Numbered from the stretch's first letter, positions 3,048-8,515 are shown. The stretch is 41,898 nt of DNA from an uncultured archaeon (GCA_964442255.1 CAYTYC010000012.1:1-41898); one strand, 5' to 3'. The notes: generated by a model not told the origin, from the sequence alone. Made by a program: numbers and translations.

Positions 3048-3974
3048 TTATGGTTTTTGCTTGTTTCTGGTCTCTTCTGCCAATTCGTTCAATTCTCTCA
3101 GGGTTTTGCTGGCAAATTTTTCAAACCCTTTGCCTGGCTCTTCTATCATCAGGCGTTCTTCTTCGCCAAGCCTGAATTTTTCTTCAAATTTCTTGTTTTT
3201 CAGGTTTTCCCCGTATTTGAGGTATTTTAGCATGAACCCGGTTTTTTCTATTGCCATTTTCTTTGCTTTTTGTATTGTAATCCCTTTTTTGGCCAGATAG
3301 TGCAGGTCGATGATGTCTCTTGCCTTGAATCCTCTTCTTGTAAGCAGGGCTCTTATTTTTTCTGCCGCAATTTCCCTGAGATCGTAACAGTGGAATGTTG
3401 AAGCACTGGTGGCCATTGCAGCATATGTTGGGTAAAGGTAGTTGAAGTCTTCAGCATGTTTTTCAGCTATTGCTTTTAGTTTGTGCCTTTCTGGCTCGTG
3501 GAATATTTTGTCAACAAAATTCAGTTGTATTTTTATGAATGTTTTTCTTTCCTCAGTGGTTGGCAAGTACCATAGTTTGAATGTTGCAAACCTGTTGCTT
3601 CCGCCTAACTGAATGTAGTGCCTGTCTGACTTGACTGGCTTGAATTCCAGAGCCAGTTCTTTTGCTGTTTTTTCAATTATTTCCATTATTTCGCTGATTT
3701 CTTTTGAGAGCATTTTCCTTATCTGTTTCTCTGACTTGCCTTCGAACGCTTTCTGTTTTATCCATGTAAAGTCAAGGTCTTCCGAGAAACGATAGTACCC
3801 AAAGTATGCTTTGGTCAGGCAGGTTCCGCCTTTGAATACAAATTTTTCTGAAAAATAGTCTGATTTTGAAAGCCGCAACAGCAGGCCCTGCAGCAAAAGG
3901 TCTTTTTCAATTAACCGGGTGCTTTTTATTTGGAGTTTTTCTGCCAGCCAGTTTAATGTTTCCTCTTTAATCAT
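3048..3974 (-). CDS. abiEii: AbiEii/AbiGii-family nucleotidyltransferase toxin (type IV TA)
   Basis: IEKDLL, FVFKGGTCL, YYRFSEDLDF, AEKIRAL..R...RDIIDL motifs. Confidence 0.9.
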   Translation of the reverse strand: MIKEETLNWLAEKLQIKSTRLIEKDLLLQGLLLRLSKSDYFSEKFVFKGGTCLTKAYFGYYRFSEDLDFTWIKQKAFEGKSEKQIRKMLSKEISEIMEIIEKTAKELALEFKPVKSDRHYIQLGGSNRFATFKLWYLPTTEERKTFIKIQLNFVDKIFHEPERHKLKAIAEKHAEDFNYLYPTYAAMATSASTFHCYDLREIAAEKIRALLTRRGFKARDIIDLHYLAKKGITIQKAKKMAIEKTGFMLKYLKYGENLKNKKFEEKFRLGEEERLMIEEPGKGFEKFASKTLRELNELAEETRNKQKP

Positions 3975-4023: not shown

Positions 4024-4656
4024 TCATTTCAATTCCTCTAAAACGCTTCTTACTGATTTGCCATAATGCCTTGAGTATTTTTTCATTTTGTTTTTGTCTG
4101 TTTCATCTGCCCATTCGATTACATAATCCCTTATCGTCTTATTGCTTTCTCCGGCATATTTTCGTATGTGGATTATGTCAAGGATTGTTTTTTCCAGGTC
4201 TGAATAAGGTGTGTTTTTGGTTTTCTTTATTCCGAATCCAAATAGTTTCTTGTTTAATTTCACAAACTTGACTTTTCTCTCCAGAATCTTTATTGGCTTT
4301 GCTCGGAATATTTTGTCCGAAACAATGTAATCAATTGTAAAAAACTCATGGGTAATGTTGTTCAGTTTTATTGCGCTCTCCAGCCCAAAATACCAGTTTT
4401 TTACTTTTTTGTATTCCATTGCTTTGGAGATTGCTTCGTAAAAGTTTGGGCCGCCTGTTTTGTATTTCCTTTCCTCCACAGTCGGGATGTAGAAGAAACC
4501 CCTCACAATTCGCTTTAGGTAGTTGTAGAGATACAGGTATTTGATTGCCTTTTTGTATGGCATGCCAATCTTGGCACACTCCTCTTTTATCCCCTCGCCT
4601 GAAATATACCTGTTTTTTCTCAGCAAGAGTTTCCTTACGAAAAGCCCATATTTCAT
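4024..4656 (-). CDS. abiEi: AbiEi-like antitoxin / transcriptional regulator
   Basis: N-terminal wHTH-like (YLKRIVRGFFY), WYFGLESA...N, YSDLEKTILD; upstream of abiEii. Confidence 0.8.
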   Translation of the reverse strand: MKYGLFVRKLLLRKNRYISGEGIKEECAKIGMPYKKAIKYLYLYNYLKRIVRGFFYIPTVEERKYKTGGPNFYEAISKAMEYKKVKNWYFGLESAIKLNNITHEFFTIDYIVSDKIFRAKPIKILERKVKFVKLNKKLFGFGIKKTKNTPYSDLEKTILDIIHIRKYAGESNKTIRDYVIEWADETDKNKMKKYSRHYGKSVRSVLEELK

Positions 4657-4878: not shown

Positions 4879-5019
4879 TTATTTTTTCCTTTTCTGCCGG
4901 TAATCCGCCAGCTTGTTTATTACATCATCGTAGGTATCGCCTTTTTTGCCTAACTCCATTAGCCTGTTTCTGGTTTTCTTTTCAAGCTGGATTGTTGTTA
5001 CCCCGTCACGACTTGGCAT
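4879..5019 (-). CDS. Small ribbon-helix-helix (antitoxin-like) protein
   Basis: 46 aa MPSRDGVTTIQLEKKTRNRLMELGKKGDTYDDVINKL; GAGG SD before ATG 5019. Confidence 0.7.
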   Translation of the reverse strand: MPSRDGVTTIQLEKKTRNRLMELGKKGDTYDDVINKLADYRQKRKK

Positions 5020-5035
5020 TCTTAAAACCTCTTTA

Positions 5036-5083
5036 TCAGCCTTTTGGAAAAAGGCTGGCGAAAAAAAACAAAGCCCGGCTTTG
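5036..5083. repeat. REP-like palindromic repeat copy
   Basis: CAGCCTTTT-GGA-AAAAGGCTG then CAAAGC-CCG-GCTTTG; 5036-5059 matches 27757-27780 at 23/24. Confidence 0.75.
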
Positions 5084-5383
5084 CCTCGCTTTATAAAGGA
5101 CATTTACTATGGGAACTATTTATGCTCCTGGCGAATTTTTCTTCAAAATCCTGAAACCTGCTACCACAAATATAAAGGGGAATGTGTGCGGTTTCTTTGT
5201 CGCCAGTACGAAAGGAGTTTAATTGGCGGTTATTTTTGGAGGGGGTTGAGGTGAGTCATTCTGGCGCACTAAAGACGGGTTACTCAAAAGCAGAAATAAA
5301 TGCGTTCAAAACGCAAATGTAGACGGAAAAAGATTTGGAATACCTGGAACTTGAAGTTATTGAATAGCTTTGAATAATCAAAT

Positions 5384-5854
5384 TCAGCACGTGGCTTTCC
5401 CGTGCTTTTCCGGGTAATCCTGGTGGTATTCCTCTGCCTCAAAAAACTTTCCCGCAGGAACAATCTCTGTCACAATTTTTCCGGAAAACTTTTCCGGTTC
5501 CTGCAATTCTTTTTTTGACTTCAACGCCGTCTCTTTCTGCTCTTCGCTGTGGAAAAAAACCGCGGACCTGTACTGCCCCCCCACATCAGGCCCCTGGCGG
5601 TTCACCTGCAGGGGGTCATGTATTCTCCAGAAAACTTTCAGCAGTTCTTCAAAAGAAACTTTCCCTGAATCAAACTCGACTTCCACTGCCTCGGCGTGCC
5701 CTGTTTTCCCGGAGCAGACTTCCCCATAGGAAGGGGTTTCCGTATTCCCTCCCGTGTAGCCCACCGTAGTGGACAAAACGCCTTCCACTTCCTTGAACGC
5801 AGCCTCAACCCCCCAAAAGCATCCCGCGGCAAAAGTCGCCTTTTCTTTGCTCAT
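5384..5854 (-). CDS. msrA: Peptide-methionine (S)-S-oxide reductase
   Basis: FAAGCFWGVE, GYTGG, TGHAEAV, QYRSAVF, AEEYHQDY. Confidence 0.97.
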   Translation of the reverse strand: MSKEKATFAAGCFWGVEAAFKEVEGVLSTTVGYTGGNTETPSYGEVCSGKTGHAEAVEVEFDSGKVSFEELLKVFWRIHDPLQVNRQGPDVGGQYRSAVFFHSEEQKETALKSKKELQEPEKFSGKIVTEIVPAGKFFEAEEYHQDYPEKHGKATC

Positions 5855-6237
5855 TTTTCCCCATCCTTTTTGAATTCCAGCGCACAGGAGTTAATGCAGT
5901 ACCGTTTCCCTGTTTCAGTCGGCCCGTCATTGAACACGTGCCCGAGATGGCTTCCGCACTTCGGGCACTTAACCCCAGTCCTTTTCATCCAAAGGCTTTT
6001 GTCTTCCCCTGTTTCCACGCTTCCCTTTTTGGCAGGGGCATCAAAACCCGGCCACCCTGTTCCCGAGTCAAATTTTGCCTTTGAGGAAAAAAGCGTGTGC
6101 CCGCAGGCCGCGCAACTGTAAACGCCGTTTTCTTTATTATGCAAAAGCTTTCCGGTAAAAGGAAGTTCGGTTCCCTTTTCACGCAGCACTTTGTACTGCT
6201 TCGGTGAAAGCTTTTTTTTGAATTCTTCTTCATTCAT
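5851..6237 (-). CDS. msrB: Peptide-methionine (R)-S-oxide reductase
   Basis: CAACG, KFDSGTGWPGF, CPKCGSHLGHVFNDGP, RYCINS. Confidence 0.97.
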   Translation of the reverse strand: MNEEEFKKKLSPKQYKVLREKGTELPFTGKLLHNKENGVYSCAACGHTLFSSKAKFDSGTGWPGFDAPAKKGSVETGEDKSLWMKRTGVKCPKCGSHLGHVFNDGPTETGKRYCINSCALEFKKDGEK

Positions 6238-6246
6238 TTAATTGCC

Positions 6247-6822
6247 TCACAGTTTCCTGCTGTCGTAAGCCCAGTGCAAAACAGCCTGCCTCTGCTTTCT
6301 CCTGCATTCAAAGTCGCCTTTTTTGCAGTTTTTTTTGATTTGCGCCAAATGCCTTTTGATTGCCTTCCACCTTTTTACCTGCCTTTCATCGTCTTTGCCC
6401 CTTCTCCCCAAATAATACCTGCAGTACCACTGAAACCTGGCTCAGAAGCAAGCACCAGTTTTGAATTTAAACCTTCTCCCCAAATAATACCTGCAGTACC
6501 ACTGAAACCATCCCCTTGGGTCTTCCCAGTAAATCCAGCCCTTTTTTTTCCACACACTCAATGGCTGTGAGGCGTTTAACCCGAAAAAATTCAGTTCCGG
6601 GTCGTGTTTTTCCGGGCAAAGCTTTGCCTTTTCAAACCAGTTTTCAGGGAATTCTTTTCCGCAGTCAGTCATATACTTTCCGCCGAACACGCCCAGTGCA
6701 AGCATCTGCTTTGGCGTCAGCTCCGGCTTAAACTCCGGGTCAAAGTTTTTTCCCGCCGGTTCGGTTAAATGGTAAACGTAATTTTTCTGCATTTTGTCGT
6801 TCACAACGACTTTTTTCTTCAT
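6247..6822 (-). pseudogene. Conserved hypothetical gene interrupted by a 72-bp in-frame insertion containing TGA
   Basis: LTPKQML.LGVFGGKY ... [17 protein letters not shown], then the insert and a duplicated [12 protein letters not shown]. The same frame continues [17 protein letters not shown]...[13 protein letters not shown] to TGA at 6247. Confidence 0.85.
6400..6509 (+). repeat. Exact 38-bp direct repeat (6400-6437, 6472-6509) flanking a 34-bp unique insert
   Basis: CCTTCTCCCCAAATAATACCTGCAGTACCACTGAAACC occurs twice; the flanking bases differ. Confidence 0.95.
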
Positions 6823-6830
6823 TCAACCAC

Positions 6831-7052
6831 TTAAACGCAGGCCGCCGCGGCCAGGATTCCGTGGACAACAGCCAAAGCCAGGGAAAGCCCAGCCAACCGA
6901 ATGTGCCATTTAAGTTGAATGCCTGCCTTTCCCTTGTGAATCAAATGCCCGGGTATTGCTGTGGCAAACGCCGGGGAAATTGTTGCAATTCCAAGCCAAA
7001 AAACCACGGGCTTTCCCAAAACCAGAAAATACCCTGTCTCCGTTAAAGCCAT
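6831..7052 (-). CDS. Small two-helix membrane protein with H-X13-H motif
   Basis: 73 aa hydrophobic; KWH(50)...H(64)G; operonic spacing of 8-10 bp. Confidence 0.7.
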   Translation of the reverse strand: MALTETGYFLVLGKPVVFWLGIATISPAFATAIPGHLIHKGKAGIQLKWHIRLAGLSLALAVVHGILAAAACV

Positions 7053-7062
7053 GCATTCACCT

Positions 7063-7446
7063 TCAGCTTACGGTGAGGGTTCCCTTCATTCCCTGTTCCC
7101 TGTGCCCCGGAACACTGCAGTAAAAAGCGTAATCGCCTTCCTCTGAAGCCGTGAAAAACACGGTTTCCTCTGCCTGGGAGGAAATGATGTTTGTGGAAAC
7201 ACCGAATTCGTCTATCACTAAATTGTGTCCAACCCTTCCCGTGTTCCTGAAAACAATTTTCACTTTTTCGCCTTTTTCAACAGAAATCGTTTCAGGGGAA
7301 TAGGCAAACTCAAATCCTTCCACCACGATTTCCCTGTCAAAGCTTTCCCCGCCGTTGCCTGAACCGTTTCCGGCAGGAGGCTGCGCGCAGCCCAGCAAAA
7401 TAAGTGAAGCAAAAAGAAAAAAAGCAGGAAGAAATTTTCTGTGCAA
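7063..7446 (-). CDS. Cupredoxin (plastocyanin/azurin-like) lipoprotein
   Basis: LLGC lipobox-like, GHNL, FYCSVPGHREQGMKG type-1 copper ligands; AGGAGG SD before TTG. Confidence 0.9.
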   Translation of the reverse strand: MHRKFLPAFFLFASLILLGCAQPPAGNGSGNGGESFDREIVVEGFEFAYSPETISVEKGEKVKIVFRNTGRVGHNLVIDEFGVSTNIISSQAEETVFFTASEEGDYAFYCSVPGHREQGMKGTLTVS

Positions 7447-7459
7447 GAAAACCCCTCCT

Positions 7460-8173
7460 TTACGCCCTCAGGGAAAACAATTTCCTTGAAAGCACGTAAT
7501 TTTTGTCAACGCTGACTGCGCCGCCTGGAATAAAGTTCTCCAGCCTTGCAAGCAAGGTGGTAAAGCCGACGTATGAAACGCTTATTCCTGCAGCAAACAA
7601 AATCCTTTCGGCCGCGACAACCGGAATCAGCAATAACCAGGCTTCAGCAGGCATTGGCACAGTGTAAAGCCAGAGCGTTGAGCCAATTGCATGCGCGGTG
7701 AAGGTTGCGCCCAAACTCCTTAAAAACAGCCTTTTGGGGAAAAATTTTGCCGCAAGCGGAATCAGCCAGTACAGGGAATAAAACCACACACTCCCCCCGA
7801 TTGGGTGAAGCATGAACAAACCCATGCAAACCAACGGAATAATTGCACTCAGATTCCCTTTAACGCTTTTAATCCTGGTTCCAAAGTAAAGCGCCGCAAA
7901 AAGCATCGGCGCAAGCCTCATTACATTCACCAGTCCAGGCGTTTTTCCAGTCAGGGCAAAGTTGCCTGCTTCAGCCAAAAGCACTGAAGTCGCGCCAACC
8001 ACGGGCCCCAAAAAAGCGCCCGCAATAGGCCCAAAGAACTGGAACAAAGTGAAGTACTGCGCGTCCGCGCCGATAACCGAAGAAAAGTTTATCTGGTAGC
8101 CTATAAGGGCCAAAACAGAGAACAAAACCAAAAACAAAATTTTTTTTCTGGTGAAAACCTCATTCAACCTCAT
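7460..8173 (-). CDS. ECF transporter S-component-like membrane protein
   Basis: 6-7 TM helices; FGPIAGAFLGPVVG resembles the S-component helix motif. Confidence 0.55.
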   Translation of the reverse strand: MRLNEVFTRKKILFLVLFSVLALIGYQINFSSVIGADAQYFTLFQFFGPIAGAFLGPVVGATSVLLAEAGNFALTGKTPGLVNVMRLAPMLFAALYFGTRIKSVKGNLSAIIPLVCMGLFMLHPIGGSVWFYSLYWLIPLAAKFFPKRLFLRSLGATFTAHAIGSTLWLYTVPMPAEAWLLLIPVVAAERILFAAGISVSYVGFTTLLARLENFIPGGAVSVDKNYVLSRKLFSLRA

Positions 8174-8323
8174 TATTTCCCTCCCTGGTTAACTACAGTT
8201 TACAGGAGAGAAAATGCATAAAAAGCTTTTGCGAAGCCTTCACCAAGCTTTCCTTTTGGATAGTAGGCAGGCAAAACAACCTTTAAAACGTTTTTCTCTC
8301 CACTTGCTTTGGAGGCGAAAAAA

Positions 8324-8515
8324 ATGGCTGTATTAAAATGTGATTCCTGCGGTTCAAAAGTTGAAAGCAACAGGTGCTGCGGAAAGCCGATGGACTTAAA
8401 GGGCGGAAAGCTGGTGTGCCGGGAATGCGGAAAAGAAGTTGCAGTGAACATGTGCTGCGGAAACCCAATGCACGAGCACGAGCACAAAGAAATGAAAGAA
8501 GACGACACAAAATAA
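8324..8515 (+). CDS. Small Cys-rich protein with two desulforedoxin-like CxxC...CCGxPM motifs
   Basis: CDSCG..RCCGKPM and CRECG..MCCGNPM; GGAGG SD before ATG 8324. Confidence 0.75.
   Translation: MAVLKCDSCGSKVESNRCCGKPMDLKGGKLVCRECGKEVAVNMCCGNPMHEHEHKEMKEDDTK

Follow-up and report, generated by a model that had tools for sequence, protein, structure and literature searches.

Organization of the six-gene locus

The 41,898-nt stretch of DNA analysed here (the window; CAYTYC010000012.1), part of the genome of an uncultured archaeon of the Iainarchaeota (G000), contains a row of six closely packed genes on one strand, the third of which encodes a 73-aa membrane protein with the histidine pair H50-X13-H64; all coordinates are positions in the whole window. 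From first to last the genes encode a polytopic membrane protein, a cupredoxin lipoprotein, the small two-helix protein, a conserved hypothetical protein whose frame is interrupted, and the methionine sulfoxide reductases MsrB and MsrA (Table 1). Our proposal, held with moderate confidence, is that this small protein forms a homodimer with two hemes and conducts electrons—a half-size cytochrome b—both the heme binding and the dimer being predicted from the family, topology and gene-context data described below.

The successive intergenic gaps are 13, 10, 8 and 9 nt, and msrB and msrA overlap by 4 nt. A GGAGG-like or GGTG-like motif lies ahead of every internal start, which makes a polycistronic operon the natural reading, and a BRE/TATA-like sequence, AAAGCTTTTTAT, situated about 45 nt ahead of the first ATG, is its putative promoter. 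The initial annotation described six same-strand genes with gaps of no more than 13 bp, and this arrangement is borne out only if the hypothetical gene is read as a single 576-nt frame.

A conserved family of two-helix membrane proteins

A HMMER profile scan of 1.84 billion representatives recovered 82 clusters at E ≤1e-3, nearly all of them 63–76 aa in length, and the small protein belongs to a real conserved family. In a word-indexed protein search the single 73-aa sequence matched only itself, in the Protein Atlas it falls only in unnamed clusters, and we found no paper on this ~72-aa family or on its pairing with a cupredoxin or a cytochrome b5 (Cyt-b5).

Conservation was assessed in an alignment of 73 clusters, which share 28–52% identity with the 73-aa protein. 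H50 never varies, and 68 of the 73 members (93%) keep H64; the pair singled out in the initial annotation is present in the 73-aa protein and conserved, to a degree that in this alignment is far beyond chance. Conservation is 92% or higher at G13, P15 and G21, and the second transmembrane (TM) helix carries small residues along its histidine face (A54, 99%; position 57, 92%; A61, 96%; position 65, 90%; position 68, 85%), a stripe that looks like a porphyrin-packing or tight helix-packing face.

Basic residues (K/R) cluster at positions 38–52, in the inter-helix loop, and nearly none are present at either end. Under the positive-inside rule the loop is predicted to be cytoplasmic and both ends to be outside, which would place H50 at the inner boundary of the membrane and H64 in its outer half. 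AlphaFold2 (AF2) models the window protein as a hairpin (helices 16–40 and 47–72; pLDDT 95.6). A single helix bears both histidines, some 21 Å from each other, so bis-histidine ligation of heme would need a second chain. A natural tandem fusion of two units, the 129-aa protein P0003, keeps both histidine pairs and is folded by AF2 as a four-helix bundle (pLDDT 83); a search for longer, fused forms of the 73-aa protein itself turned up none, which is weak evidence. Complex prediction with two copies and two hemes gave a score of 0.23 against a mark of 0.42, in a run without controls that is evidence neither way.

Similarity to heme-b membrane families

Among the 73 aligned members, matches below the Pfam cut-offs fall on PF01794 Ferric_reduct (19 members; best 1.4e-5), DUF4405 (PF14358; five members, best E 0.0085), Ni_hydr_CYTB (three) and Cytochrom_B561 (two), all of which are heme-b membrane families. 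When the Iainarchaeota genomes were searched in six frames with PF01794, loci of the small protein matched approximately positions 2–74 of the 121-position profile at E 1e-3 to 6e-2 and 13–21 bits, the gathering cut-offs being 28 bits for PF01794 and 26.7 bits for PF14358. A Pfam scan of ten arbitrarily chosen members gave no PF01794 matches, and a six-frame search of G000 with PF14358 gave none at E up to 0.1. The likeness to di-heme cytochromes drawn in the initial annotation stands as a weak but consistent similarity to these four families; none of the matches reaches a cut-off.

The family was compared using hhalign with ten canonical ferric-reductase-domain proteins (FRDs; 184–276 aa) of the same phylum, giving P 6e-4 and a probability of 29%, with H64 aligned to the histidine that is invariant in them and H50 to the Arg within a conserved Arg-Lys. 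FRDs of the YedZ/STEAP type replace the first heme histidine (His101 of NOX2) by Arg, and the NOX/FRE types keep it (PMC3591440); with H50 at this position and H64 on the invariant histidine, the small protein resembles, basic cytosolic loop included, the hairpin that TM2 and TM3 form in an FRD with two hemes. A comparison with short (81–116 aa) DUF4405-like proteins of the phylum also gave P 6e-4, with both histidines aligned. By cut-offs and helix number the family lies outside PF01794 and PF14358, and on present evidence it would work like them.

With the model of the tandem fusion, Foldseek against the PDB gave nothing at E up to 0.001, and at E 1–4 returned STEAP1/2/4 and 4D2, a di-heme protein designed de novo, among unrelated bundles. 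A wide structure search with VIA-align gave generic four-helix bundles, with a chemoreceptor sensor domain at the top (Z 13.8) and both cytochrome b6 and 4D2 at Z 10; a profile search of PDB sequences gave no match at E up to 10. Structure searches cannot tell helical bundles apart.

This generic hairpin or bundle fold would also suit a non-redox protein—a membrane anchor, assembly factor or regulator for an exported lipoprotein, its histidines structural or proton-related—and such a role gains from the fact that no curated family cut-off is reached and that half of the loci have no redox neighbour. We give it only a slim chance, since it is heme-b families, and not membrane families at random, that recur among the weak matches, the histidine spacing and the small-residue face match those of heme helices, and electron carriers for both sides of the membrane are encoded next to the small protein.

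Of 215 genomes of the Iainarchaeota, 59 encode canonical FRDs that exceed the Pfam cut-off (loci L064–L075 among them); these FRDs have Arg at the first heme-histidine position, in the style of YedZ and STEAP. A survey of 2013 reportedly found almost no archaeal FRDs. The short DUF4405-like proteins constitute a second two-helix family in the phylum (loci L090–L098), with the pattern H-X13-H-x3-H and a predicted topology opposite to that of the 73-aa family. In L090, L092, L093, L097 and L098 their gene directly follows a small gene whose sequence starts with MSEEKPIITFDDF or similar, and a CTP synthase-like gene is also nearby in L090, L093 and L097.

Cupredoxin and cytochrome b5 genes beside the family

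The 127-aa product of the gene directly upstream matches PF13473 Cupredoxin_1 (1.2e-13; 51.4 bits, cut-off 27) and PF00127 Copper-bind (1.3e-13; 51.6 bits, cut-off 21.2), and its copper ligands read from the sequence as H74, C110, H115 and M120 (C-x4-H-x4-M). Its N-terminal hydrophobic segment ends in an LLGC lipobox, a motif that points to an exported or anchored protein; the type-1 copper lipoprotein named in the initial annotation is confirmed on all of these counts. It is the sole PF00127 match found in G000 by six-frame search.

Each of 215 Iainarchaeota genomes was surveyed, and 25 have a match to the small protein, 22 of them strong; partners were positioned from PF00127 and PF00173 matches together with Pfam checks of the neighbours. 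A cupredoxin gene is directly adjacent in seven of the 22 (G000, G002, G042, G114, G179, G050 and G045) and a Cyt-b5 lipoprotein gene in five (G005, G024, G158, G159 and G171); in G045 a Cyt-b5 gene is present as well, two genes upstream and behind the cupredoxin, and two further genomes (G155 and G006) have a partner within ~1.3 kb. Cyt-b5 lipoproteins substitute for the cupredoxin in these other loci. A cupredoxin or Cyt-b5 is encoded somewhere in the genome in 20 of the 22 with the small protein and in 58 of the 190 without it, a contrast that is descriptive only, given the non-independence of related genomes.

An even sample of 401 genomes of the Patescibacteriota, the bacteria of the Candidate Phyla Radiation (CPR), gave 25 with a match and 24 loci with an open reading frame (ORF) of the family. 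Twelve of the 24 have a partner within 1.5 kb: a cupredoxin in nine, a Cyt-b5 in two and the DUF2769/FMN_red set in three. A separate search with a nine-sequence subset of the family alignment gave further loci: in Nomurabacteria/Parcubacteria and in Dojkabacteria/Saccharibacteria the cupredoxin gene lies one or two genes downstream, in a metagenome-assembled genome labelled Gammaproteobacteria a Cyt-b5 gene is directly upstream, and in one Patescibacteria locus (L083) the gene directly upstream encodes a flavodoxin. Co-occurrence of the small protein with a cupredoxin thus recurs in both CPR and DPANN, as the initial annotation had anticipated. The His/Cys/His/Met ligands are kept in 10 neighbouring cupredoxins, as are HPGG and the second histidine in the Cyt-b5 proteins, and the partners of both kinds all have lipoprotein or N-terminal anchors.

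A second set of neighbours, comprising the Cys-rich DUF2769 protein and an FMN_red flavoprotein (~260–320 aa), accompanies the small protein in both archaea and CPR bacteria; we know of no described function for DUF2769. Locus L119 has the gene row small protein, cupredoxin, rubredoxin-FMN reductase fusion and DUF2769, its flavoprotein having an N-terminal rubredoxin-like domain. G155 has cupredoxin, FMN_red, DUF2769 and small-protein genes together, and the FMN_red/DUF2769 set is also near the small protein in G152 and in L088/L113. The likely cytoplasmic partners are flavodoxin, or FMN reductase with DUF2769. In Patescibacteria locus L122 the upstream neighbour of the small-protein gene codes for a membrane protein of 217 aa that ends in a Cyt-b5 domain (PF00173, 9.7e-8), and so, on its domain content, for a carrier fused to its own membrane part.

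Gene pairs of a canonical FRD and a Cyt-b5 lipoprotein are common in the Iainarchaeota, the two being directly adjacent in at least 13 genomes (G191, G195, G037, G154, G060, G045, G194, G181, G050, G147, G062, G155 and G159). The genomic position of the small protein is therefore that of a transmembrane heme carrier already recognised in this phylum.

Since the commonest neighbour is a copper protein, we considered copper handling or metal reduction, in which the small protein, whether or not it carries heme, would reduce Cu(II) or Fe(III) at the outer face or pass copper to the maturing cupredoxin, in the manner of the PepSY_TM proteins CrpH and FoxB, of STEAP or of Dcytb. The related FRD, STEAP and PepSY_TM proteins are metal reductases (PMC3591440, PMC13038864), and the conserved histidines could bind a metal; but Cyt-b5 lipoproteins, which need no copper, replace the cupredoxin in at least seven loci, 150 neighbours include no recurrent transporter for copper or iron, and histidines 14 residues apart on one helix suit two heme sites and not one metal site. 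Copper handling or metal reduction therefore seems improbable to us.

Redox and heme genes of the source genome

The CPR bacteria and DPANN archaea are, to our knowledge, usually described as fermenters without electron-transport chains. Six-frame family searches of G000 (1.28 Mb in 51 contigs, 93.8% complete) found no canonical ferric-reductase domain, Cyt-b5, cytochrome bd, heme-copper oxidase or DUF4405, in agreement with the initial view of a lineage that usually lacks a respiratory chain. One flavodoxin is encoded, on contig 17. The genes hemB and hemC were not found by the same searches, and heme would accordingly have to be scavenged; the many FRD and Cyt-b5 genes of the phylum imply that heme is used by its members regardless.

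A need for scavenged heme raises the prospect that the small protein imports it, or delivers it to an extracytoplasmic Cyt-b5. Conserved TM histidines are typical of heme-handling proteins such as those of the CcsA/CcmC type, and Cyt-b5 neighbours are frequent. However, the commoner partner is the heme-free cupredoxin, G000 has no Cyt-b5 to be served, cytoplasmic flavoprotein neighbours fit electron input and not heme transport, and no WWD-type or transporter domains are present in the small protein; heme handling strikes us as distinctly improbable.

The link to methionine repair and oxidant defence

Both reductases of the operon belong to ordinary MsrA and MsrB families. MsrB matches SelR PF01641 (2.7e-49) and TIGR00357 (174.5 bits, cut-off 113) and has two CxxC pairs and the motif RYCINS; MsrA matches PMSR PF01625 (8.2e-66) and TIGR00401 (210.7 bits, cut-off 108) and has a GCFWG motif. 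Neither has a signal peptide, and both are most likely cytoplasmic enzymes. These families use thioredoxin.

The initial annotation had tied the small protein and the cupredoxin to methionine sulfoxide repair, with electrons fed to the reductases as MsrQ feeds MsrP. The same-strand operon with 8–13 nt gaps agrees with such a tie, MsrQ is itself an FRD-family protein (PMC12525009, PMC3591440), and oxidative-stress genes recur near the family. Outside the window, however, msrA and msrB are absent from all 20 Iainarchaeota loci (within 5 kb) and all 40 further loci, which makes the link local only. An MsrP-type molybdoenzyme (PF00174) was found neither in G000 nor in eight genomes of the same family, a control search being positive in nine of 14 known genomes, and with the reductases lacking signal peptides the MsrQ-MsrP analogy fails as a mechanism. 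Methionine repair as the purpose of the pair is largely refuted, and we consider it highly improbable. Of the conserved neighbourhood that had been supposed, it is the cupredoxin pairing that recurs, in DPANN and CPR alike, and the msr genes that do not.

Genes for superoxide dismutase (SOD), superoxide reductase, peroxiredoxin, rubrerythrin, hemerythrin and Fpg recur near the small protein (Table 1), with MsrAB present here, and suggest that it helps the cell to deal with oxygen or oxidants. At ~8 of 46 loci, this window included, genes for oxidant defence or repair are no more than a few genes away; as a plain count this is suggestive.

A proposed transmembrane electron path

On these observations we favour the di-heme conduit: the small protein is probably an undescribed minimal wire that moves electrons across the membrane. 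Each chain would form a hairpin of two TM helices, with its basic loop in the cytoplasm and its ends outside, and two chains would pair as a four-helix bundle. H50 and H50' would ligate an inner heme b near the cytoplasmic face and H64 and H64' a second heme near the outer face, an arrangement like that of His101 and His115 on TM3 in ferric-reductase domains of the NOX type. A flavoprotein in the cytoplasm would supply the electrons, the candidates elsewhere being flavodoxin or the rubredoxin-FMN reductase with Cys-rich DUF2769. The electrons would then traverse the two hemes and pass to the lipid-anchored type-1 cupredoxin encoded immediately upstream, or in other genomes to the Cyt-b5 lipoprotein that takes its place. 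These carriers could hand them onward to a final acceptor, possibly within oxygen or oxidant defence. From the conserved histidine pair, the predicted topology and the gene neighbourhoods we infer heme binding and a dimer, as well as the way in which the electrons flow and the part that the protein plays in the cell. The Cyt-b5 substitutes, the flavodoxin or FMN reductase/DUF2769 partners and the recurrent oxidative-stress genes are all additions to the initial annotation.

Several points weigh against the conduit. The position of H64 is occupied by Y, R or S in five of the 73 members; no member exceeds any Pfam cut-off and the window's own protein matches nothing in Pfam; the homology to canonical FRDs is weak, as the hhalign probability indicates; structure searches return generic four-helix bundles only; and the tandem fusion is known from a single sequence. 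No recognisable redox partner is nearby in ~8 of 22 archaeal and 12 of 24 CPR loci, the related genomes that were surveyed are non-independent observations, hemB and hemC were not found in the 93.8%-complete G000, and as a cytoplasmic donor G000 offers only a candidate, the flavodoxin encoded elsewhere in the genome.

Many CPR and DPANN genomes encode exported cupredoxins whose electron supply is unexplained, and in a study of CPR bacteria the electrons were said to reach the cupredoxin "by an unknown means" (PMC5581439). The small protein, encoded beside exported carriers in both domains of life and sometimes beside a cytoplasmic rubredoxin-FMN reductase or flavodoxin, is a candidate for the missing membrane step. 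If the conduit is real, it would rank with the smallest natural transmembrane conduits for electrons, each chain having just two helices. It may offer a minimal model for heme-bundle design and a clue to the origin of the six-helix FRDs. A more speculative extension, which we regard as doubtful, is that the hairpin represents one free-standing half of the di-heme bundle ancestral to FRD and cytochrome-b-type domains, with the tandem fusion as an intermediate, and that together with a cytoplasmic flavoprotein and an anchored cupredoxin or Cyt-b5 it forms the only transmembrane redox chain of many CPR and DPANN organisms. Such a chain would supply the route to the periplasmic CPR cupredoxins, and would serve oxidant defence or the disposal of reducing power.

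Other features of the operon and its surroundings

The first gene of the operon was described in the initial annotation as ECF-S-like. Its 237-aa product has 1099 homologues, the best 120 of which are 52–68% identical and mostly from DPANN archaea; the description holds in that a few close homologues carry PF12822 (ECF transporter S component), and falls short in that the protein has no match of its own in Pfam or NCBIfam, nor any in PHROGs. As a conserved partner of the small protein it was rejected, being absent from all of the other loci (0 of 20 in Iainarchaeota, within 5 kb, and 0 of 40 further loci), and the same applies to the conserved hypothetical gene.

The 576-nt frame of the hypothetical gene is broken by an in-frame TGA at 6442–6444. 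This is brought by a 72-nt in-frame insert, composed of 34 new bases and the second copy of a perfect 38-nt direct repeat, and as the sequence stands it leaves a 204-nt untranslated stretch ahead of msrB. In Logan contigs from a microbial mat metagenome, which is the likely source sample, the 94-nt insert-bearing node has a depth of 4.3 and the flanks 7.1 and 7.5, with the repeat as a separate node at 9.9; the insert is thus present in the reads, and is probably carried by only part of the population. The 126-aa product of the first segment has no match in Pfam, NCBIfam or PHROGs, and its nearest Protein Atlas clusters are unnamed.

Divergent from the operon is a 68-aa Cys-rich ORF with two CxxC...CCGxPM units, which resembles the N-terminal domain that desulfoferrodoxin shares in type with desulforedoxin (PF06397, below the cut-off at E 0.003) and could, on its motifs, be a small cytoplasmic iron-centre protein. 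Just downstream of msrA is probably an AbiE-type toxin-antitoxin pair, consisting of an AbiEii nucleotidyltransferase toxin (PF08843, 7.6e-31) and an upstream 210-aa partner without a Pfam match; a 74-aa ORF matching DUF7557 (4e-8) lies between this pair and msrA.

Table 1. Genes and other features of the window, and genes near the small-protein gene in other genomes and loci.
Feature	Genome or locus	Position	Strand	Basis
237-aa polytopic membrane protein (ECF-S-like), first gene of operon	window	7460–8173	-	ORF
Type-1 (blue) copper cupredoxin lipoprotein, 127 aa, TTG start	window	7063–7446	-	ORF and Pfam
73-aa two-helix membrane protein with H50-X13-H64, proposed mini cytochrome b	window	6831–7052	-	ORF, family, AF2 model
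Conserved hypothetical, 192 codons, interrupted	window	6247–6822	-	ORFs 6442–6822 (126 aa) and 6247–6411 (54 aa), one frame
Perfect 38-nt direct repeat, copies 6400–6437 and 6472–6509, around 34 inserted bases	window	6400–6509		repeat search
msrB, peptide-methionine (R)-S-oxide reductase	window	5851–6237	-	PF01641, TIGR00357
msrA, peptide-methionine (S)-S-oxide reductase	window	5384–5854	-	PF01625, TIGR00401
68-aa Cys-rich ORF	window	8309–8515	+	PF06397, below cut-off
74-aa ORF	window	4879–5103	-	DUF7557
210-aa partner of AbiEii-like toxin	window	4024–4656	-	
AbiEii nucleotidyltransferase toxin	window	3048–3974	-	PF08843
DUF2769 gene	L052	4747–4977		
DUF2769 gene	L058	5250–5489		
DUF2769 gene	L088	3607–3861		
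DUF2769 gene	L113	1113–1367		
DUF2769 gene	L119	2951–3172		
217-aa membrane protein with C-terminal Cyt-b5	L122	1709–2362	-	PF00173
Rubrerythrin	G002			
Peroxiredoxin, desulfoferrodoxin, hemerythrin	G024			
Hemerythrin	G042			
Hemerythrin	L084			
Fe/Mn SOD, EncFtn/rubrerythrin-like protein	L105			
Fpg, desulfoferrodoxin	L118, L120			

Comparison with known systems

The MsrPQ system shares with the proposed conduit a membrane heme protein that sends electrons outward to an extracytoplasmic partner, as well as a theme of oxidative damage. It differs in its acceptor, MsrP being a periplasmic molybdoenzyme that was not found in G000, whereas the window encodes MsrA and MsrB without signal peptides in a linkage that is not conserved.

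Cytochrome b559 of photosystem II holds a heme b between identically placed histidines of the short, single-histidine helices of its two small chains, alpha and beta, and illustrates that very small subunits can share a bis-histidine heme. The likeness is one of description, and b559 has one helix and one histidine per chain and a single heme inside a large complex.

DUF4405 and FezC have been shown to bind heme b, FezC by way of a modelled homodimer (bioRxiv 10.1101/2024.03.13.584918). Like the 73-aa family they are small membrane proteins with conserved TM histidines—heme b-binding in their case—that were found by gene context and proposed as transmembrane electron carriers. The TM histidine pair is likewise the most conserved feature, and both histidines of the small protein align with the pair of the short DUF4405-like proteins. 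In FezC the heme sites arise by homodimerisation, as modelled, whereas the dimer proposed here is deduced from the location of both histidines on one helix and from the one tandem fusion. The predicted topologies are opposite, with the loop inside in the 73-aa family and the ends inside in the local DUF4405-like proteins, and the gene contexts differ, being ApbE flavinylation or ferrosome genes for DUF4405 and FezC and a cupredoxin or Cyt-b5 lipoprotein for the small protein.

The FRD superfamily (PF01794: NOX, FRE, STEAP and MsrQ/YedZ) differs in having six helices to the hairpin's two. The small protein has no TM5 histidine pair, so that a second chain is required; it falls under the Pfam cut-off, lacks a fused dehydrogenase domain, and has a cupredoxin or Cyt-b5 as its partner, not MsrP, O2 or ferric chelates. 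Both nonetheless have an inside-to-outside helix with H-X13-H that follows a basic cytoplasmic loop (the B-loop and TM3 of NOX), the His101/His115 pair of NOX2 having the same spacing as H50 and H64, with 13 residues between. H64 aligns with the surface-proximal heme histidine and H50 with the His101 position, which is Arg in YedZ/STEAP and in the local archaeal FRDs (PMC3591440), and both are encoded beside an extracytoplasmic redox partner, which for FRDs of the same phylum is Cyt-b5.

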